A DNA stretch of 64,000 bases. Source: Spirochaetota bacterium. Its GTDB lineage: Bacteria; Spirochaetota; UBA4802; UB4802. The notes under the pieces are model-generated. The model made no database searches, was not told the DNA's origin, and was given only the letters and a program-made list of their open reading frames with translations. The stretch covers positions 18,099-82,098 of the forward strand of contig JBFLZD010000007.1 of the NCBI GenBank assembly GCA_040756435.1, in the 5' to 3' direction. The translations under genes and the position numbers were made by a program. Below, one piece after another: positions 7,345-25,467 of this stretch. How positions within the stretch are numbered: position 1 is the first letter of the stretch; each line of letters opens with the position of its first letter.

Positions 7345-9744
7345 ATGAATTTTGAAGAATACTTTGATAATGACACCATTCAGATAGAAAATACCATTCT
7401 TGCCAGCGACCTGTCAAAAATTGATACCAATCTACCTTCTACTATACATATCATACCTGTACGATACAGGCCCATATTTCCTGGTATTATTACTCCCCTC
7501 ATAATTGCAAAACCACGGTTCATGCGATCAATTGATGATGCACTAAATACCTCGCGAGCTATTGGTTTAGCTGTATTGAAAGATGATGATGTTGAAGATG
7601 TGGAGATAGATGACATAGAAATGTTTGGCACCGCAGCAAAGATAATCAAAAAGATTAACCTTCCGGATGAAAGCATTAACGTCCTTATAAACAGTATCTG
7701 TAGGTTCAGAATCACTAAAATTATCGATGATAAAAAAAGTATTATTGCTAAAGTTGAATACATTTATGATAAAGCAAATCCAAAAAACCTTGAAATCAAG
7801 GCATTAACCCGCGCTATTTTGAGCCAGCTTAAAATACTATCCGAAAGCAACCCTCTGTTTACTGAAGAGATGAAACTCACCATGCTTAATGTTGATGAGC
7901 CTGGCCGAATAGCTGATTTTGTTACATCCATATTAAACCTGGAAAAACAGGAATACCAGAATATTCTGGAGACAATTAACGTAAAAAAGCGCCTTGAAAA
8001 GGTACTGGTACTTTTGCAAAAGGAGCTGGAAGTAGTTTCGGTTCAGCGCAAAATCCAGAACCAGATAAACGAAAAAATATACAAACAGCAACGCGATTAC
8101 TTTTTACGTGAGCAGTTAAAGATAATCAAGCAAGAATTAGGACTTGATGATGACCGCACAAATGAAATTCAGCAGATGAAATCTAAAATTGAATCCTTAC
8201 ATCTCAAGGGTGAACCAAAAGAAAAGATACAGGATGAGCTTAACCGCCTTTATTACATTGAATCAAATACACCTGAATACATCATAGCCCGTACCTATTT
8301 GGATACGGTACTTTCCCTGCCATGGAATACCTATACAGAAGATTGTCTTGACATTACACGGGCGGAAAAAATCTTAAAGAAAAGCCATTATGGGCTTGAT
8401 GATGTCAAAGAACGAATACTGGAGTTTCTATCGGTCAGAATGCTTAAACCAGATTCAGGAGGCTCAATTCTATGCCTTGTTGGCCCTCCAGGTGTTGGAA
8501 AAACCTCACTTGGGCAGGCTATAGCTGATTCATTAAAACGTACATTCTTTAGGGTATCATTAGGTGGTATACGGGACGAAGCTGAAATAAAAGGCCACCG
8601 CCGTACCTATATTGGAGCAATGCCGGGAAAAATCATTCAGGGCTTAAAAGTTTGTAAATCCAAAAATCCTGTTTTCATGCTTGATGAAATTGATAAACTG
8701 TATCAGAGCTATCAGGGTGACCCTGCAGCTTCGCTTCTGGAAGTCCTTGATTATGAACAAAACCATTCTTTCAGGGACCACTACATTGATATGCCGTTTG
8801 ACCTTTCAAAAGTACTGTTCATTACCACTGCCAATACCACCGACACCATACCTGATGTTCTGCTTGACCGTATGGAAGTCATACGTATTCCCGGCTATAT
8901 TGTTGAGGAAAAATACAAAATTGCAAAACATTTTCTTTTACCAAAACAGCTTAAAAAGCATGGTTTGCCAAAAAATTCCATTGAACTTGACAGGGATGCT
9001 CTCTTGTATATTATTAATGGTTGGGCACGTGAGGCAGGGGTTAGAAATCTGGATAGACAGTTAGAACGCCTTTGCAGGAAAAAGGCAAAATCAATTGTTA
9101 AAAAAGATAACTCATTCCCTCATCACCTTGATGAAGAATCAATACGCTCGTTACTTGGACCGGAATACTATACCGGTGATACAATACCTGATAAACTCAA
9201 ACCAGGCATTGCAATAGGACTTGCATGGACATCAACAGGCGGATCTGTTCTTCTTGTTGAGGCACTTTCCACGCCAGCACAGGGTTCTTCCACTTTAACG
9301 CTTACAGGTAATATTGGCGATGTGATGAAGGAATCAGCAACTATCGCTTATAATTATATTAAAAATTACTTTAATGATGACACTAACGCAATAGACTTTT
9401 TTAACAAGAATAATATCCATATTCATGTTCCGGCAGGAGCTATACCAAAAGATGGTCCTTCGGCAGGAATAACAATGGCATCAGCGCTTTATTCACTTAT
9501 TAAGCATATACCAGTTACAAAACGCATCGCAATGACCGGTGAGCTGACGCTTTCAGGAAGAGTGTTACCTGTTGGTGGAATAAAAGAAAAGCTTATTGCA
9601 GCAAAACGTGAACATTGCAATACAGTCATCATGCCACTGGAAAATAAGAAAGAAATGGGCGATATTCCATCGCATATCACACGGGGATTGTCACTATATT
9701 TTGTTGCCCATGTGAATGAAGTCTTTGATATACTATTTAAGTAA
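7345..9744 (+). CDS. lon: ATP-dependent Lon protease
   Basis: LON N-domain, Walker A GPPGVGKTSLGQAIA, Walker B FMLDEID, and protease-domain catalytic Ser in DGPSAGITMASALYS. Length 799 aa. Confidence 0.95.
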   Translation: MNFEEYFDNDTIQIENTILASDLSKIDTNLPSTIHIIPVRYRPIFPGIITPLIIAKPRFMRSIDDALNTSRAIGLAVLKDDDVEDVEIDDIEMFGTAAKIIKKINLPDESINVLINSICRFRITKIIDDKKSIIAKVEYIYDKANPKNLEIKALTRAILSQLKILSESNPLFTEEMKLTMLNVDEPGRIADFVTSILNLEKQEYQNILETINVKKRLEKVLVLLQKELEVVSVQRKIQNQINEKIYKQQRDYFLREQLKIIKQELGLDDDRTNEIQQMKSKIESLHLKGEPKEKIQDELNRLYYIESNTPEYIIARTYLDTVLSLPWNTYTEDCLDITRAEKILKKSHYGLDDVKERILEFLSVRMLKPDSGGSILCLVGPPGVGKTSLGQAIADSLKRTFFRVSLGGIRDEAEIKGHRRTYIGAMPGKIIQGLKVCKSKNPVFMLDEIDKLYQSYQGDPAASLLEVLDYEQNHSFRDHYIDMPFDLSKVLFITTANTTDTIPDVLLDRMEVIRIPGYIVEEKYKIAKHFLLPKQLKKHGLPKNSIELDRDALLYIINGWAREAGVRNLDRQLERLCRKKAKSIVKKDNSFPHHLDEESIRSLLGPEYYTGDTIPDKLKPGIAIGLAWTSTGGSVLLVEALSTPAQGSSTLTLTGNIGDVMKESATIAYNYIKNYFNDDTNAIDFFNKNNIHIHVPAGAIPKDGPSAGITMASALYSLIKHIPVTKRIAMTGELTLSGRVLPVGGIKEKLIAAKREHCNTVIMPLENKKEMGDIPSHITRGLSLYFVAHVNEVFDILFK

Positions 9745-17582: not shown

Positions 17583-18524
17583 ATGATAAAAAAACTTTGC
17601 ATTATAATTGTAACCATTGTTACAGCCGTGCCTGTTTTTGCCTGGGAAACTTTTGACAGAGTAATTGCTGTTGTTAATGATACTGCCATAATCCAGAGCG
17701 AACTCATGCGCCGTTACCAGATAGTTACCAGGAAACAAACACCTAAAAAACCTGAAGAGCTAAATTCCATCCTTGACAACCTGATTGAAAGAGCGCTCAT
17801 TGAACAGGAAGCCCGTGAACAGGCAATAATCATTAGCGATGAAAAAGTAATGTCACATATAAACAATATTATGAAATCGCAGAAGATTTCTTCTCTGGAT
17901 GTTTTTAAAAAGATGGTTGAAGAAAAAGAAGGAATCAGTTTTGATGAATATAAAGAAGAAATTCGCCAGAGCCTGCTTACTGAAATGCTTGTGTCACTGG
18001 CAATAGGTGTTTCACCACCATCAAAAGATGAGGCATATCAGTGGTATAAAGAAAATAAAAATAAATTGGGGAATGAAGTACATATCAAGCAGATAGTTAT
18101 ACGGCCAAAAAACTCAAGTTTTGCCGAGGAAAAGCGTGCCAATGAATTAATAAAGCAGATACGCGACAGCATTTTAAAAGGTGAATCATTTGAAAAACTT
18201 GCCTCACAATATTCAGAAGACCCAAGTGCAAAGAATGGCGGCGACATTGGCTGGCTTGCTTTAGCTGAAATGGATCCGTATATGGCAAACACTGTATTCA
18301 GGATGAAAAAACCCGGTGAAATATCACCAGTCATAAAAACACAAACAGGCTATACAATCGTAAAACTAATGGATTCACGGCCAACATCATTTGAAACAGT
18401 GCAGGATAGAATCTTGAATATGCTGTATCAACGCAATATGGGCGAACAGTTCAAAAAATGGATTGTAACCCGCAGAGCACAATCCGATATTAAGATATAT
18501 CTTGAAAATTACAGGCAGAGCTAG
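17583..18524 (+). CDS. Peptidyl-prolyl cis-trans isomerase, SurA/PrsA-like (parvulin domain)
   Basis: Signal peptide, SurA-N-like helical domain, parvulin motif DIGWLA...GEISPVIKTQTGYTIVKL. Confidence 0.8.
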   Translation: MIKKLCIIIVTIVTAVPVFAWETFDRVIAVVNDTAIIQSELMRRYQIVTRKQTPKKPEELNSILDNLIERALIEQEAREQAIIISDEKVMSHINNIMKSQKISSLDVFKKMVEEKEGISFDEYKEEIRQSLLTEMLVSLAIGVSPPSKDEAYQWYKENKNKLGNEVHIKQIVIRPKNSSFAEEKRANELIKQIRDSILKGESFEKLASQYSEDPSAKNGGDIGWLALAEMDPYMANTVFRMKKPGEISPVIKTQTGYTIVKLMDSRPTSFETVQDRILNMLYQRNMGEQFKKWIVTRRAQSDIKIYLENYRQS

Positions 18525-18532
18525 GAAATACC

Positions 18533-20032
18533 GTGAACACGCAAGCCTTAATTTTTGTCGATAGCTCAATTAAAGATGACAATCCTTTAACATTCAACGG
18601 ACAGTTTATCCCAGATAGTATTGCACAGAAAATACAATCCCTGCCTGCTATTGAATCCATCCATTACTGTATTCCAGAGTCTTATACAGGTAAACTAAAA
18701 CAGGCTGGTTCAGTTTTTACCTATTCAAACACTGACACCCCTGAAATGTGGCACCAGATTTTTACACAGACAGGTGCACTCCACATCATAAAGATACCTG
18801 CTGATGCAGCGTTTTTCCAGCCTTCAATAGTATCTGAAATGCTTGATACACACAGTAAATATCTTTCAGAATTTACCTTTTCCTACAACCTGCCATCAGG
18901 CTATGCATGTGAGATTATATCAAAATCAGTTCTTGAAAATCCGCTTGCAAACCCAACGCTACCAAACTCACTTTGCGACATTGTTAAAAGCAATCTTAAC
19001 CAGTTTGATGTGGAACTGTACTATAAAGAACCGGATTTGCGCTGGCACAGGGTAAACTTTAGAGCCGCAAACATCCGCGACCGGCTTGTCATGCAGAATA
19101 TTATCGCTGTCAATAACCAGACACCACCATACGAATTGTTGCAGGATATAATCGAAAATCACCCGGAGGTTCTTTTTAGCACACCTTCCTATGTAGAAAT
19201 TGAACTGTGTGGGCATTGTAACATTGACTGCATATTCTGCTATCGCAATATACTATCGCCTCAGCATGGCATCATGGAACTATCCACACTCCAAACGCTT
19301 CTTGAAAAGATGCGATTGTTTAATACACCATATGCTGTGTGTTTTGGTGGAAGTGGCGAGCCTCTGCAGCATCCGCAATTTTATAAGGCACTGGAACTTT
19401 GCAACAACGAAGATTTGATACATACCATTGTTATTGAAACAAATGGCATTGCTGCCAACACTGCTTACGCATCAGCTCTGGCTTCTTTTACAAGCAATAA
19501 AGTAACCACCATAGTGAATATTAATGGCCATAACGCTGAAAGTTATCAAAAGCTGCATAATGCTGATTATTTTAACACAGTTTACGATAATATACTGAAA
19601 CTGAAAGAAATTCTTGAAACAAACAACAAACTTAACAACAATCTTTATATCCAGATACTAAAAATCAATGAAACGGAGAATTTTTTAGATAGTTACTATG
19701 ATTATTGGGAACAGCATAAGATACCTATTATTTTACAAAAGCAAAACACCTATCTTGGACGTATTACCGATAGGCGTTACTCAGACTTAACACCACTGCA
19801 GCGAAAACCATGCTGGCACCTGCGTCAGGATTTATATATATTAAGCGACGGCACCATTGCATTTTGCAAACAGGATATAGATGGAGCAGCAAAACGCGGC
19901 AATATTACTACTGATGACATGAGTGCTATCTGGAAACAACAACAAGAGCATTTTGTTAATGACTATAAGGGAAACAGGGCAAAAAAACCTGATTGCGCAT
20001 TGTGCGATGAATGGTATACTTATAATTTATAA
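18533..20032 (+). CDS. Radical SAM / SPASM-domain enzyme with N-terminal degenerate cytidylyltransferase-like domain (GTG start)
   Basis: CGHCNIDCIFC (C-x3-C-x2-C) radical SAM cluster motif. C-terminal Cys-rich SPASM-like region (CWHL...FCKQD...CALCDEW). The N-terminal ~220 aa align in motif order with the adjacent SpsF-like protein (IKIPADAAF vs VRITADNPF; LPSGYACEIIS vs LPLGTGVEVIA) but lack the N-terminal R/K nucleotide-binding motif. Confidence 0.8.
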   Translation: MNTQALIFVDSSIKDDNPLTFNGQFIPDSIAQKIQSLPAIESIHYCIPESYTGKLKQAGSVFTYSNTDTPEMWHQIFTQTGALHIIKIPADAAFFQPSIVSEMLDTHSKYLSEFTFSYNLPSGYACEIISKSVLENPLANPTLPNSLCDIVKSNLNQFDVELYYKEPDLRWHRVNFRAANIRDRLVMQNIIAVNNQTPPYELLQDIIENHPEVLFSTPSYVEIELCGHCNIDCIFCYRNILSPQHGIMELSTLQTLLEKMRLFNTPYAVCFGGSGEPLQHPQFYKALELCNNEDLIHTIVIETNGIAANTAYASALASFTSNKVTTIVNINGHNAESYQKLHNADYFNTVYDNILKLKEILETNNKLNNNLYIQILKINETENFLDSYYDYWEQHKIPIILQKQNTYLGRITDRRYSDLTPLQRKPCWHLRQDLYILSDGTIAFCKQDIDGAAKRGNITTDDMSAIWKQQQEHFVNDYKGNRAKKPDCALCDEWYTYNL

Positions 20033-20216
20033 AATTTTTTATATTAAATGGATATAAAAACGCCCACCTTTTTTACTGTAAATATGTATAGGTTATCGCG
20101 AATTTTTTATTTATTTTATTTGAGGAATTATCTGTTAAATATTATTAAATGTGAGTTACCAAACTTTCCGGTAAATTTTTTTATTGTTGATTAATATTTC
20201 AAGTTATTATCTTAAT

Positions 20217-20987
20217 TTACTTTTTTTGAGCTATCCGTTTAACCTGATAGGTTTTAAAGGCATTGATATTATAATTCATTTTACAGTATTCTTCTATTTC
20301 AGGGTGGATTGTATATCCAACCATAAATCCAATTACATCTGATTGCAAATATACTCTAAGCCTCTCAAGCATTTTTGCAAATCTATCTATATCCCGTTTA
20401 CCAGGTTGAGCCTTACATTCACCAATAATATATACATCCTTATCATTTTTTACAGCTTTAACATAAATATTAACTTCGTCATACTTGCCACTATCATATT
20501 GTATGTATTTTCTTTCTACCTCCTTAGCTTCTGCACCATATTGATTATAAACAAAATTTTCAATATACGGTATCAAATTATCCTCAATCCCATAGCCTAC
20601 AACCATTGACAATCCACCTACCTGCTTTTTTAAATCATCAACAGTCAAAATGAGATTTTTCAAAACATCTTCTGTCCTTTTCTGTGCTTCTGCTAATTCC
20701 TCAACACGCTGCTCTGTCCTCTTCTGTGCTTCTGCTAATTCCTCAACACGCTGCTCTGTCCTCTTTTGCGCTTCTGCTAATTCCTCAACACGCTGCTCTG
20801 TCCTCCTTTGTGCTTCTGACAGCTCAACTACATTTTCAGTTAACACACGAAATTCTTCTTTAGTTACTGATTGATTGATTTCATTATATATTTTTATTAG
20901 AAGATTGGTCAATACAGTAGCTTCTTTCTCGCCAAAGGTTTCTTTTAAATTTTGATAAATTTCAAACGTATTAATCATTCCCAACAC
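20217..20987 (-). CDS. Coiled-coil tandem-repeat protein with C-terminal PD-(D/E)XK nuclease-like domain; function unknown
   Basis: Three perfect 14-aa repeats ([14 protein letters not shown]) encoded by 42-bp DNA tandem repeats. C-terminal YDEVNIY...[10 protein letters not shown] fits a D...(D/E)xK restriction-endonuclease-fold motif. Confidence 0.5.
20665..20830. repeat. 42-bp tandem direct repeat x ~3.3 (unit gcttctgctaattcctcaacacgctgctctgtcctcttctgt) inside the coiled-coil gene
   Basis: Near-perfect copies at 20686-20727, 20728-20769 and 20770-20811, plus partial flanking copies. Confidence 0.9.
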
Positions 20988-21323
20988 CTCATTGCCGTAT
21001 GATACACAACTATCTCCTCATGTTTTGTAATAAATATAGCATTAATACTATAAATATGTCAAGTAAATTGCACATCATATTCACTATTAAAAAAGCCTCT
21101 CCCCTGGTCACAGGCATGGGTAAAGCCAATTATTCACCAAAAATAAATTAAATAACACACCAATTACCGCATACACCACTTAAGAAAATATAAAATATGT
21201 ATTTATACATTAGCTTCAACAATTGTAAATAAAAAGTATTGCAAAAACTCCTGATACCATTACGATACTTATTGTAGAAAGAATACTTTATAGTTTTTTA
21301 TCATTCTTGCAGGAAGTCATATC

Positions 21324-22055
21324 ATGAAAATTACTGCAATCATACAGGCACGCATGCAATCAACAAGGCTTAAAGGAAAATCAGTCCTTCCGCTTGCAGG
21401 CAAACCACTGCTGTACCATGTTATACAGCGTGCAAAAGCCATACAACAGGTCACACAGGTGGTTGTTGCTATCCCCAACGATGATGACAATAACCCGTTA
21501 GCTGATATTGCACAGCTTTGTAATGTTAATGTATTTCGAGGACCCTTGCACAATGTACTTGAGCGCTACTTTTTAGCATATAAGCAGTATGGTGGCAACT
21601 ACATAGTGCGTATCACTGCCGACAACCCTTTTACCGACAGCCATTTTGCATCGGTTGCTATAAAAGAAGCATTACGCACAAAGGTGGATCTTTGTGCAGT
21701 AAAAAACCTGCCACTTGGCACAGGAGTGGAAGTCATTGCTTCCACTGCCCTTGAAGAAGCATATACGAACAGTACAAAGCCCTACCATTTTGAACACGTA
21801 ACACCGTATATAAAAGAAAATCCTGATACCTTCAACATTCATTATTTTGATGTAGCTTATAAAAATCCTTTTCCATCACTTCGCCTGACAGTGGACACAC
21901 AGGAAGATTATATGCTTGCATCTACAATTTATGATGCGTTGTATAACGAGAGCGTTTTTTCACTGAGCGATGTCATTGCATTCCTTGAAAAAAACCCGCA
22001 TCTTGTGAAACTAAACGCATCCATACAGCAAAAACCAATGACATCGCATGAATAA
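21324..22055 (+). CDS. Acylneuraminate/pseudaminate-type cytidylyltransferase (SpsF/PseF/NeuA family)
   Basis: N-terminal IIQARMQSTRLKGK nucleotide-binding motif and ITADNPF motif typical of CMP-sugar synthetases of the SpsF family. Confidence 0.7.
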   Translation: MKITAIIQARMQSTRLKGKSVLPLAGKPLLYHVIQRAKAIQQVTQVVVAIPNDDDNNPLADIAQLCNVNVFRGPLHNVLERYFLAYKQYGGNYIVRITADNPFTDSHFASVAIKEALRTKVDLCAVKNLPLGTGVEVIASTALEEAYTNSTKPYHFEHVTPYIKENPDTFNIHYFDVAYKNPFPSLRLTVDTQEDYMLASTIYDALYNESVFSLSDVIAFLEKNPHLVKLNASIQQKPMTSHE

Positions 22056-22935
22056 CATGGACATAACAATCATAACCGATTCAGGCCCACACATAGGCCA
22101 GGGCCACTGGCAGCGCATGCTATTCTTTGCATTGTACTGCGCACACAATGGCATACCCGTTACACTGTTACACAAACATGGCGCGTCAACACCTTTAGGC
22201 TTTCCTTTAAAGGTAAGCGATAGTATTCCGCAAAACACTCACTGCATTATACGGGACATGCGTGATTCATCAAAAGAAGAAATTGAAAATTTGAGGGCGA
22301 TAGCACCTGTTATCGTCATCGATGACTGTGGAGAAGGCCGAACACTTGCACACGCAGCTATTGACCTTTTGCCAAATATTTATGGCAACACTGCAAATAC
22401 TTTTCAAGCCACTATGCCGCTTTTCCTGTACGGCTATAATTTTTACCAGTCACTATCGCAAGCTCCACCCAGTATATCAAAAGACATAGATTGTTTTATA
22501 TATGCAACCACATTTGATGCAACACCACTGTGTGATTCATTAGGCAAACACTATAGCTTTGTGTGCAGTGATGGCAACACATTCATAACAAACACACTAT
22601 TATCAAATCGTAGCTATACAAATCTCATTGCACGCAGTAAGGTAGTTATATCCCACTTTGGTATATCTATTTACGAAGCAATGCTGTGTGGTTGCCATTG
22701 TATTATTCTCAATCCAACAGCCTATCATGATGAACTATCGCACACATTGCAAAACACCAACGTGCTTGTACACCACCAGCTTTATAATCAGGCAGATATT
22801 CCCAAAATCATGGAAATTTTAAAAAATTTTGTTGAACAGGCAAATACGCCTGTTGATACTGCCCATTGCATAAGCACCATCCAGACAAATCTGAAAAACT
22901 TTTACGATGCGCTACGATTAATTATCACATCATAA
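22048..22935 (+). CDS. SpsG/PseG-like UDP-sugar hydrolase / glycosyltransferase-fold protein
   Basis: N-terminal DSGPHIGQGHWQRMLFFA resembles the PseG/SpsG G-x-G-H-x-x-R motif. 8-bp overlap with the upstream SpsF-like gene (SpsF-SpsG pairing is common). Confidence 0.5.
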   Translation: MNNMDITIITDSGPHIGQGHWQRMLFFALYCAHNGIPVTLLHKHGASTPLGFPLKVSDSIPQNTHCIIRDMRDSSKEEIENLRAIAPVIVIDDCGEGRTLAHAAIDLLPNIYGNTANTFQATMPLFLYGYNFYQSLSQAPPSISKDIDCFIYATTFDATPLCDSLGKHYSFVCSDGNTFITNTLLSNRSYTNLIARSKVVISHFGISIYEAMLCGCHCIILNPTAYHDELSHTLQNTNVLVHHQLYNQADIPKIMEILKNFVEQANTPVDTAHCISTIQTNLKNFYDALRLIITS

Positions 22936-22954: not shown

Positions 22955-24880
22955 ATGGGATATTCGGTATGTTATAAAATACTGCAGTCACATCTCAAAG
23001 AGGGAAAACTTGAACCGGGAACTGAAATTGGCATTGTCATTGACCAGACATTGACTCAGGATGCAACGGGCACCATGGCGTATTTGCAGTTTGAAGCAAT
23101 GGGCATTGACCGTGTAAAAACTGAGATCTCTGTGTCGTACGTTGATCACAATACATTGCAGATGGGCTTTGAAAATGCTGATGACCATAAATACCTGCAG
23201 ACCATGAATGCCAGATACGGAATCTATTATTCTAAGGCAGGCAACGGTATATGCCATCAGGTGCATTTAGAGCGATTTGCAAAGCCAGGAAAAACATTGC
23301 TTGGTTCTGACAGCCACACACCCACCGCTGGTGGCATGGGCATGGTAGCCATTGGTGCTGGTGGGTTAGATGTTGCCGTTGCTATGGGTGGAGGACTGTT
23401 TTATTTAACCTGCCCAAAAGTTATAAATATTTATCTTACCGGAAAACTTCGTCCGTGGGTTAGCGCAAAGGATATTATTCTTACAGTGCTTCAAAAACTT
23501 ACTACAAAAGGTAATGTTGGCTATGTGATAGAATATACAGGGCCTGGCATTACAATGCTTTCAGTGCCTGAGCGTGCAACCATTACCAATATGGGTGCCG
23601 AGTTAGGTGTAACCACGTCGCTTTTCCCCAGTGATATGGTTACCTATGAGTTTTTAAAAGCACAGGGCAGAGAAAAAGATTTTATTGAACTTCTTCCTGA
23701 TACCGATGCAGTTTACGATAAGATTATTGAACTTGACCTTTCCAGCATAGAGCCAATGATAGCCTGTCCTCACTCACCAGATAACGTGGTAACTGTTGAA
23801 TCAATTAAAGGCATGAAGGTGGATCAGGTTGCCATTGGCAGTTGTACTAACTCATCGTATAAAGATTTAGTCACTGTTGCAAAAATTCTTAAAGGCAAAA
23901 AGATTCATCCCCATGTTAGCTGTATTCTGGCTCCAGGCTCAAAGCAAGTGTTACAGATGTTAGCCAAAGAAGGGTACTTAGCTGACATTATTGAAAGCGG
24001 TGTGCGCATTATGGAATCTGCCTGCGGTTTTTGCATTGGCAATGGCGGTGCACCCATTTCTGGCGGCGTGTCATTGCGCACCAACAACCGCAACTTTGAA
24101 GGGCGTTCAGGCACTAAAGATGCAAAGGTGTACCTGGTAAGCCCTGAAACCGCTGCGCTATCGGCCATTGAAGGCAAGCTTGTAAATCCTTTAGATATGC
24201 CTGCAAGAAGCTTTCCCCAAATAGAATTGCCAAGCACATTTATAATAGATGATTCTATGATCATTCCACCGTTTCAGTCAGATGAACCTATATTCAGAGG
24301 TCCAAACATTGGCCAGCCTCCAAAAACACAGCCCCTACCACAAACCATTCATGCCGTGGTGGGCATAAAGGTTGGCGACAAAATTACCACTGACCACATC
24401 ATGCCTGCAGGGCAACGTTTGAAATATCGATCCAATATTCCTGAATATGCAAAATATGTTTTTGAAATGGTCGATAGTTCATTTTCAAAACGCGCACTTG
24501 ATAATAAAGAAAAAGGGCTGGCAACAGTAATCGTTGGCGGTGTAAGCTACGGACAGGGCTCAAGCCGTGAACATGCGGCTATATGCCCTGCATATCTGGG
24601 AGTAAAGATAGTGCTTGCTAAATCGTTTGAACGCATTCATACAGCAAATCTCATTAACTTTGGGATTTTGCCACTGATATTTAACAATGAAAGTGACTAT
24701 GACAGCATACAGGTGGGGGATACCGTTGTAGTGAAGGATTGCATAAAACAGGTTGAAAGCGGTACCATGATTACATTACTCATCAATAACAAATCTGTAC
24801 ACTGTACATTGCTTGCAACTGATAGGCAACGAAAGATTTTAATTGCTGGGGGGCTACTTAATTATACCACACAGCACTAA
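22955..24880 (+). CDS. Aconitase-family hydro-lyase (short ~640-aa putative aconitate hydratase / homoaconitase-like type with fused swivel domain)
   Basis: GSDSHTPTAGGMGMVAIGAGG and CGFCIGNGG Fe-S ligand regions. C-terminal swivel domain VIVGGVSYGQGSSREHAA. Domain order 1-2-3-4 as in mitochondrial-type aconitases. Confidence 0.85.
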   Translation: MGYSVCYKILQSHLKEGKLEPGTEIGIVIDQTLTQDATGTMAYLQFEAMGIDRVKTEISVSYVDHNTLQMGFENADDHKYLQTMNARYGIYYSKAGNGICHQVHLERFAKPGKTLLGSDSHTPTAGGMGMVAIGAGGLDVAVAMGGGLFYLTCPKVINIYLTGKLRPWVSAKDIILTVLQKLTTKGNVGYVIEYTGPGITMLSVPERATITNMGAELGVTTSLFPSDMVTYEFLKAQGREKDFIELLPDTDAVYDKIIELDLSSIEPMIACPHSPDNVVTVESIKGMKVDQVAIGSCTNSSYKDLVTVAKILKGKKIHPHVSCILAPGSKQVLQMLAKEGYLADIIESGVRIMESACGFCIGNGGAPISGGVSLRTNNRNFEGRSGTKDAKVYLVSPETAALSAIEGKLVNPLDMPARSFPQIELPSTFIIDDSMIIPPFQSDEPIFRGPNIGQPPKTQPLPQTIHAVVGIKVGDKITTDHIMPAGQRLKYRSNIPEYAKYVFEMVDSSFSKRALDNKEKGLATVIVGGVSYGQGSSREHAAICPAYLGVKIVLAKSFERIHTANLINFGILPLIFNNESDYDSIQVGDTVVVKDCIKQVESGTMITLLINNKSVHCTLLATDRQRKILIAGGLLNYTTQH

Positions 24881-25467
24881 GGGATCATTTCAACAACCTT
24901 AACATTGAATCCACAGAAGGGGAGCCACCCCTTCTTTTTTGCTTTTTCAGCAGTGACAATGATATACGGTATATATTCAGGTTCAAATGGCTCACGCAGC
25001 AGGTTCCAGCCTATCTCATGCATAAGCTTGTTACCTTTTTGGTTGTTACACCATTTGCATGCGCACACCAAATTATGCCAGCTAGAAAAACCTTCCTTTA
25101 AGGATTTGCCAGTTACCACTTCCCATCTGCTTCGCGGGATAACATGGTCAACAGTAAGGTATTTCATCTGGAAGCGTTTACCACAGTACTGACATTGCAT
25201 GTCATCACGGTAAATGACATTAAGCTTTGAAAACACAACCTTGCGACGCGGCAGATGATGGTAGTTAAGAATAGCAATAACAGAAGGGACTTTAATTGCT
25301 ATTGATGGGGAGCGGATAAAAGTATCTTCCTCAACAACGGGCACAGCTTTGTCGGAAAGCAATAGGCATATTGCCTCTTTTACCGTTGTTATTCGGATGG
25401 GAACAAACCCTGCATTTAGTACCAGTACCTCAGATTCAATCATGGTGTACCACCTGTACGCACACAA
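24877..25467 (-). CDS. Stand-alone HNH endonuclease
   Basis: CQYCGKRF...LTVDHVIPRSRW...HNLVCACKWCNNQKGNK gives a full HNH motif with two CxxC zinc knuckles. 4-bp convergent overlap with the aconitase stop. Confidence 0.8.
   Translation of the reverse strand: MCAYRWYTMIESEVLVLNAGFVPIRITTVKEAICLLLSDKAVPVVEEDTFIRSPSIAIKVPSVIAILNYHHLPRRKVVFSKLNVIYRDDMQCQYCGKRFQMKYLTVDHVIPRSRWEVVTGKSLKEGFSSWHNLVCACKWCNNQKGNKLMHEIGWNLLREPFEPEYIPYIIVTAEKAKKKGWLPFCGFNVKVVEMIP

Follow-up and report, generated by a model that had tools for sequence, protein, structure and literature searches.

The 64,000-nucleotide stretch of DNA analyzed here (the window; positions 18,099 to 82,098 of contig JBFLZD010000007.1, Spirochaetota bacterium assembly GCA_040756435.1) carries on its reverse strand a gene predicted to encode a coiled-coil protein that ends in a nuclease domain of the PD-(D/E)XK (restriction-endonuclease-like) superfamily (Table 1). 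In the list of open reading frames (ORFs), the gene occupies 20217..20987 and yields 256 aa if read from GTG. The ATG at 20978 is probably the true start and gives 253 aa, since GAGGTG sits 6 nt upstream of it and the GTG at 20987 falls inside that Shine-Dalgarno sequence. A database protein that is 100% identical (P0001) is also annotated by NCBI with 253 aa, as "MAG: hypothetical protein, Spirochaetota bacterium" (MAG, metagenome-assembled genome); a record look-up for the exact protein returned none. The promoter-like site upstream agrees with the consensus at 11 of 12 positions, a match from which its function may be presumed, and no terminator-like site was found for the gene.

Table 1. 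Features of the coiled-coil nuclease gene and its flanks, in window coordinates
Feature	Position	Strand	Basis or remark
Cassette of ~1.3 kb (gene plus both intergenic regions)	20036..21329		Absent from L086 and L087
Promoter-like site: TTGACA, 18-nt spacer with TG, TATATT	21033..21062	-	~55 nt upstream of ATG
Shine-Dalgarno sequence GAGGTG	20985..20990	-	6 nt 5' of ATG; holds the GTG used by the ORF finder
Coding sequence of the coiled-coil PD-(D/E)XK protein, 253 aa plus stop codon	20217..20978	-	ORF list, Shine-Dalgarno sequence, identity to P0001
N-terminal helical hairpin, residues 1-36	20871..20978	-	AlphaFold2 helices and conservation
Beta-layer-type motif xVTKxEF, S37-V-T-K-E-E-F43	20850..20870	-	Helix break at 37-39; V38 and F43 at >= 90%
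Coiled-coil stalk, residues 40-118	20625..20861	-	Heptad register and AlphaFold2
In-frame 42-bp tandem array, one degenerate and three protein-identical 14-aa units	20673..20840	-	
Hinge G121-G122 between stalk and nuclease domain	20613..20618	-	Low model confidence here
C-terminal PD-(D/E)XK domain with conserved residues	20220..20612	-	

The full protein was modeled with AlphaFold2 from a 54-sequence alignment (predicted local distance difference test [pLDDT], 89). The model places helices at residues 4-15 and 17-36, a break at 37-39, and a long helix from residue 40 that continues into a compact alpha/beta C-terminal domain, with very low confidence at 121-128 (GGLSMVVG). Five parts follow one another in the protein: an N-terminal helical hairpin, a VTKxEF motif, a heptad coiled coil, a Gly-Gly hinge, and the restriction-endonuclease-fold domain. 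The hairpin is the best-conserved part among orthologues, with 88-92% amino acid identity and a ratio of nonsynonymous to synonymous substitution rates (dN/dS) of 0.08 over the first 50 aa. No signal peptide, transmembrane segment, or secretion-associated domain was recognized by inspection of the N-terminal sequence. The xVTKxEF motif is nearly invariant family-wide. Hartmann et al. (PMC4786415) described a beta-layer motif of the form [aliphatic]-A-T-K-[polar]-[DE], which reads "FVTKTEF" in MPN010, and S37-V-T-K-E-E-F43 fits this motif on comparison with that paper; the alignment of the Pfam DUF16 model in homologues starts exactly at VTKxEF. Beta-layers have been seen in trimeric coiled coils, and the stalk may therefore be a trimer. 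The Gly-Gly hinge is likewise well kept, G122 being invariant and G121 conserved at >= 90% in alignment A1, and both at >= 90% in the wider alignment A4.

The stalk measures 82 aa, or ~12 nm, from V38 of the VTKxEF motif to V120 before the hinge. Its heptad register is unbroken from F43 (set as position a) to V120, with F V Q V Q V Q V Q L V V at position a and L L T L T L T L T L L at position d. Each 14-aa unit combines one hydrophobic heptad (V/L) with one polar-core heptad (Q/T) and has Ala at positions e and g, so that the core is polar in every second heptad (Gln at a, Thr at d; residues 43-118, window 20625-20852). The repeat unit is more than a generic coiled coil, because L95 and Q99 are invariant and T102 is conserved at >= 90% family-wide. 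The polar-core heptads suggest a specific role, such as ion binding, selection of the oligomeric state, or ligand contact.

The model of the isolated C-terminal domain (pLDDT, 92.6; predicted template modeling score, 0.85) has the fold of the PD-(D/E)XK superfamily. Its top Foldseek matches are MspJI, the R2 endonuclease domain, and NucS. In the table of structural neighbors, the figures are 12.2 for NucS, 11.5 for AF1548, 11.0 and 10.4 for Can2, 9.8 for N.BspD6I, 9.2 for FokI, 9.1 for Card1, and 8.3 for SduA, and the neighbors also include Cap4, NucC, and HamA. The catalytic residues of the superfamily are in place as well: an acid in helix 1 (E132; 20583-20585), an acid at the start of strand 2 (E168; 20475-20477), and the (D/E)xK of strand 3, found as E187-C-K189 (E187, 20418-20420; K189, 20412-20414) at the end of the strand, which pairs with strand 2 as a hairpin. 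Across sets of 54, 34, and 124 homologues, G121, G122, G128, Y129, E132, R156, E168, N170, G186, E187, and K189 are invariant or conserved at >= 90%; among the 124 representatives, E132 is invariant, and E168, N170, E187, and K189 stand at >= 90%. On these alignments, E132, E168, E187, and K189 make up a complete acid/acid/acid-x-Lys site with canonical motifs I, II, and III, and the hairpin topology would bring these residues together in space. An earlier note on this DNA had predicted a nuclease fold from a D-x(~20)-E-C-K motif. The fold is borne out by the domain model, the Foldseek matches, and the conserved site. The motif itself is present as D167-E168...E187-C188-K189, but D167 is variable, and the conserved acid is E168, with E132 in addition.

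At the sequence level, the sole relevant signal was Pfam NucS_C, which 2 of 34 homologous domains match (E = 7.6e-4). Scans of the full protein against Pfam, NCBIfam, and PADLOC gave coiled-coil noise only (tape-measure proteins, Rad50, JetC, and LmuB), and these matches were rejected as composition driven. Pfam gave nothing significant for the isolated domain, a DUF4838 match (E = 0.022) being rejected. No real relative was found among solved structures by sequence searches with the full protein and the domain profile, in which matches to SNAP-25 and tropomyosin were rejected as artefacts. A viral fold search in BFVD returned generic restriction-endonuclease-fold matches only, with template modeling scores (TM-scores) of 0.4-0.6.

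Tandem Repeats Finder detected the repeat that the earlier note had pointed out, with period 42, 3.5 copies, 95% matches, and a score of 261 at 20671-20818. What had been described as three perfect 42-bp repeats (20757-20798, 20715-20756, and 20673-20714) encode the same 14 aa each time, but from one unit to the next the DNA changes at 2 and then at 1 position, without effect on the protein, and a degenerate fourth 14-aa unit lies upstream of them in gene order (20799-20840).

The length of the stalk varies widely. Among the 81 homologues in which both landmarks were located, the distance from VTKxEF to xGGLS ranges from 54 to 258 aa, and the stalk length equals 7n+5 in 73 of these 81 and in 10 of 10 syntenic alleles. 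The alleles reconstructed at full length were those of the window, L001, L003, L005, L008, L085, and L088-L091. Copy number was expected to differ between strains, and it does: P0007, P0011, P0017, and P0018 are identical at 168 of 168 non-repeat residues and have stalks of 103, 82, 68, and 68 aa. P0002-type alleles are 307, 321, 335, and 363 aa long and P0005-type alleles 244 and 272 aa. The units at either end are kept, and gains or losses concern two variants of the internal unit, a classic variable number tandem repeat (VNTR) pattern. Repeat number changes faster than point mutations accumulate, and the heptad phase is always kept. In the orthologue at L006, a run of N interrupts the repeat array (~7700-7820), from which it is seen that assemblers struggle with the VNTR and that repeat counts from short-read MAGs need caution. 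The idea of a contingency (on/off) locus has to be given up: the unit is 42 bp, every reconstructed full-length allele is in frame, and the allele lengths differ by multiples of 7 aa, so that the variation is one of length and not on/off phase variation.

On one side, the gene converges with a radical-SAM gene of the spiro-SPASM type (TIGR04321, 354 bits; 18533-20032, forward strand), upstream of which lie a LeuA-like gene, a racemase gene, and a SurA-like gene, and it is divergent from genes for a cytidylyltransferase, an unknown 295-aa protein, and an aconitase. The cytidylyltransferase/295-aa region spans 21324-22935 on the forward strand, and neither Pfam nor NCBIfam has a match for the 295-aa protein. 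The neighborhood had been called a sugar cluster, for which a single cytidylyltransferase among these genes is a weak basis. The slot is occupied in Leptospira-like MAGs and metagenome contigs (L001-L006, L008, L085, and L088-L092), whose flanking proteins are ~70-99% identical to those of the window.

In two related genomes, L086 and L087, the gene is missing, and 37 bp separate the radical-SAM stop from the cytidylyltransferase start (L086, 3900-4010); in this sense, it was rightly described as inserted. The radical-SAM, cytidylyltransferase, 295-aa, and aconitase proteins of these genomes are 81-95% identical to the window's and are closer to it than those of the L001 group. Loss is the most parsimonious reading for L086 and L087 because more distant genomes carry the gene. 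Since the cytidylyltransferase and 295-aa genes follow the radical-SAM gene after only 37 bp there, the cassette probably splits an operon of unknown function. Genome comparison makes the gene an accessory cassette that is not essential and has a promoter-like site of its own.

The nearest relative of the window is L085, whose flanking proteins are 95-99% identical (radical-SAM, 96%; cytidylyltransferase, 96%; aconitase, 99%), while identity drops to 61.7% in the nuclease domain. At the DNA level, the two are 96.3% identical up to 20041 and 92.8% from 20701 on, and the DNA between these points is ~75% identical or unalignable. One recombination breakpoint therefore lies in the repeat array, and recombination through the repeats has replaced the nuclease half of the gene in L085. 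No other protein segment in the neighborhood is as poorly conserved as the nuclease domain (58-81% identity), yet its dN/dS of 0.15 points to purifying selection.

The earlier note had also pointed to an HNH endonuclease 4 kb away. This gene (24877-25467, reverse strand, 196 aa) is an unrelated, highly conserved resident, with 95-99% amino acid identity across all syntenic genomes and a dN/dS of 0.02-0.04. It is core-like in behavior, unusually for an HNH protein that is small and stands alone, and in NCBIfam its product weakly resembles the HNH portion of IscB (32 bits versus a cut-off of 175).

Gene context was further surveyed at ~60 other loci, with 148 genes within two positions of a family gene. 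All-against-all clustering of the neighbors at these loci revealed no conserved partner gene, and the only syntenies are lineage specific, involving an FMN (flavin mononucleotide) reductase, GspH pseudopilins, and a promiscuous histidine-kinase cluster. The pseudopilin synteny comprises clusters of 7 and 4 loci, and four neighbors match Pfam GspH/N_methyl; in these clusters, of which the Desulfobacterales loci L026 and L038 (7799-8248) are examples, the family gene stands ~90 bp upstream, on the same strand, of pseudopilin genes with prepilin-type N-terminal methylation. This adjacency may be no more than synteny within a lineage, or it may reflect a function in DNA uptake or pili. The 148 neighbors fall into 144 Pfam families, and their PADLOC matches are generic (cyclase, ABC ATPase, and MotA models). 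A clustering of homologues in defense islands, for which the earlier note had asked, is therefore not seen as an enrichment in this survey, in which no formal genome-wide defense score was computed. No relatives were found in phage and plasmid collections by tblastn or in a scan of IMG/VR.

The protein belongs to a sizeable family. A full-length search gave > 4,400 matches, with lengths of 188-425 aa among the 120 matches listed, and a profile of the nuclease domain was matched by 992 clusters (50% identity level) with E <= 1e-3, or by 682 with E <= 1e-10, among 1.84 billion representatives. The domain lies at or near the C terminus in the best 150 matches listed. Family members were seen in Spirochaetota, Desulfobacterota, Nitrospirota, Kryptonia, Bacteroidota, and others, and the archaea are represented by at least one MAG (Jordarchaeales). 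The family is patchily distributed, and some genomes have 2-3 copies: two paralogues (L050 and L057) lie ~30 kb apart on contig JASGUC010000035.1 of a Pseudomonadota MAG, and several other MAGs hold 2-3 copies on different contigs. No second copy was found within the window. Of the 124 family representatives, 22 match Pfam DUF3782 (E <= 1e-3). P0067, with 42% identity to the window protein (phmmer E = 1.3e-72), passes the DUF3782 cut-off (25.4 versus 24.4 bits). The DUF3782 model is not purely coiled coil: in P0067 (residues 118-183), it reaches from the final repeat across the GG hinge into helix 1 and strand 1 of the nuclease; in the window protein, the residues concerned are 81-112. The combination of a coiled coil and a PD-(D/E)XK domain has been described already (Knizewski et al. 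2007, PMC1913061; Hartmann et al. 2016, PMC4786415), and Steczkiewicz et al. 2012 (PMC3424549) gave the function as unknown and the distribution as patchy and resembling horizontal gene transfer (HGT). The literature found on COG5493, DUF1626, and DUF3782 consists of three computational or structural papers, with no functional study. The gene is a further member of this computationally known family.

We consider it probable that the product is a self-associating endonuclease of the cytoplasm and belongs to the DUF3782-type family, built from a coiled-coil stalk and a PD-(D/E)XK domain. The stalk would form a parallel homo-oligomer, for which the beta-layer motif suggests a trimer and a dimer is the alternative, and this oligomer would gather two or three nuclease domains at the same end. 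These domains would cleave DNA in an Mg2+-dependent manner. The conserved N-terminal hairpin may contact a conserved cellular partner or act as a sensor, and the stalk length may be a weakly constrained or tunable spacer. The role of such a protein would lie in nucleic-acid surveillance or genetic conflict rather than in core repair. The turnover of the locus (loss, domain replacement, and VNTR) and the many defense nucleases among the structural neighbors favor a role in conflict or defense.

Several results weigh against this explanation. The window protein scores 10.5 bits (E = 0.7) against DUF3782 (PF12644), below the gathering score of 24.4 bits, although it is a homologue of bona fide DUF3782 members because P0067 passes the cut-off and 22 of 124 representatives match. 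PF07788 (PDDEXK_10) has no match at E <= 10 for the isolated domain or at E <= 1 for the 34 homologous domains. No DNA-recognition or sensor domain is recognizable in the window protein, whose nuclease activity is a prediction. The copy-number data come from short-read metagenome assemblies, in which near-identical repeats may be miscounted. In addition, the housekeeping-like neighborhoods and the unspecific PADLOC results weaken a role in conflict. A typical defense-island gene is also hard to reconcile with these neighborhoods, with a protein that has neither a partner nor a sensor domain, with the lack of relatives in mobile elements, and with purifying selection.

The same evidence bears on a more specific reading, in which the protein is a stand-alone anti-phage or anti-plasmid defense nuclease, acting as a single gene like Shedu or a type IV restriction enzyme, with its diversity driven by an arms race. 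We regard this as possible but tentative. A cassette that only some relatives carry, a nuclease domain that was replaced in the near-identical genome L085 and is the fastest-evolving protein segment of the neighborhood, the 2-3 paralogues of some genomes, and structural neighbors such as Can2, Card1, Cap4, NucC, SduA, HamA, and MspJI fit such a nuclease. However, the PADLOC matches are coiled-coil noise with no match to the SduA/DUF4263 models, the 148 neighbors at ~60 loci spread over 144 Pfam families with generic PADLOC matches only, the phage, plasmid, and IMG/VR collections searched hold no relatives, no reader or sensor domain is recognizable, and the dN/dS of 0.15 indicates purifying selection. 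The resemblance to defense or abortive-infection proteins proposed in the earlier note is hence left in part: allele turnover at the locus hints at such a role, but clustering in defense islands is not found, and the PADLOC match is through the coiled coil only.

A housekeeping nuclease of DNA repair or recombination (NucS/EndoMS- or Hjc-like) with a repetitive oligomerization stalk appears unlikely. Occupation of the same slot in at least 5 lineages with ~70-99% identical flanking proteins, purifying selection, and a promoter-like site of its own fit such an enzyme. Against it stand the replacement of the nuclease domain in L085, a patchy distribution, and a family of only ~1,000 clusters among 1.84 billion representatives. 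A core repair role is improbable because close relatives lack the gene, L086 and L087 being closer to the window than some of the carriers.

A bolder reading, which we regard as a long shot, makes the family a new kind of single-gene system for nucleic-acid surveillance, in which the conserved hairpin would latch onto some structure of the cell or of an invader, the trimeric coiled coil would be a ruler retuned by slippage of one or two heptads, and the nuclease "warheads" would be swapped by recombination through the conserved repeats. If this were true, the repeats would have two functions, setting the length of the stalk and offering the joint at which domains are shuffled by recombination.

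We give very little credence to a polymorphic-toxin-like effector, in which the N terminus would serve for delivery and the repeat stalk would carry a nuclease toxin that can be exchanged at the C terminus: the conserved N terminus (88-92%), the diverging C terminus (58-81%), and the breakpoint within the repeats suit it, but no signal peptide, transmembrane segment, or secretion domain is seen by inspection of the N-terminal sequence, and no immunity-like ORF lies downstream, where only 184 bp (~20 bp in L085) remain before the convergent radical-SAM stop. Similarly improbable is a catalytically dead nuclease fold in a structural or scaffold coiled-coil protein, for which it may be said that no activity has been shown for any family member and that one member of the C-terminal alignment weakly matches NA-iREase3, an "inactive restriction endonuclease" Pfam family (E = 0.046), since an acid/acid/acid-x-Lys set that is (nearly) invariant across 124 representatives is unexpected for an inactive fold. 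A homing endonuclease, which a free-standing cassette between conserved genes might bring to mind, was judged unlikely because the divergence of the gene mostly tracks its flanks and the family has no preferred insertion context.

Taken alone, the gene is a mostly ordinary finding, one more member of a noticed but uncharacterized nuclease family. The family is sizeable (~1,000 clusters at the 50% identity level) and without a solved structure. Its stalk is a natural in-frame VNTR with strict heptad phase (7n+5, 54-258 aa) and offers a clean natural experiment on coiled-coil length versus function. Length hypervariability, domain replacement, and presence/absence together form a pattern common in conflict systems, which makes the family a candidate for defense screening, although its members are not found in defense islands.

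Among known systems, DUF1626/PDDEXK_10 (PF07788, COG5493) resembles the family studied here in that DUF91/NucS is the nearest family for both, the spread is patchy and HGT-like, and the function is unknown. The domain model, structural neighbors, and NucS_C matches agree with the description of DUF1626 in PMC1913061. Many DUF1626 members have Thr instead of the motif III Lys, whereas Lys is conserved at >= 90% in the family of the window protein. NucS/EndoMS (PDB 2vld and 5gke) shares ~11-12% sequence identity and has a beta-barrel N-domain for dimerization and DNA binding, a PCNA-binding tail, and no coiled coil; moreover, NucS is a conserved repair enzyme, whereas the window gene is accessory. 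In HsdS of type I restriction enzymes, in-frame repeats of a coiled-coil spacer change copy number between EcoR124I and EcoR124II and hence alter a molecular distance. The HsdS spacer sets the gap between two DNA-recognition domains, and its effect on specificity is known, whereas the window protein has no known recognition domains and any effect of its stalk length is conjecture. Mycoplasma DUF16 (MPN010, PDB 2BA2) likewise begins its coiled coil after an xVTKxEF beta-layer motif, but it has no nuclease domain, and all matches of homologues to DUF16 fall below the curated cut-off of 40 bits. A further likeness is to DUF3782 as treated in PMC4786415. In both, the stalk stands directly before a PD-(D/E)XK domain, bacterial members have plain heptads, and a beta-layer-type [aliphatic]-x-T-K-x-[DE] motif is present. 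That paper used the family as a source of coiled-coil structures and reported no function, copy-number variation, or allele turnover; by comparison, the stalk-length alleles in 7-aa steps, the nuclease-domain swap in L085, and the absence of the cassette from L086 and L087 appear to be new.
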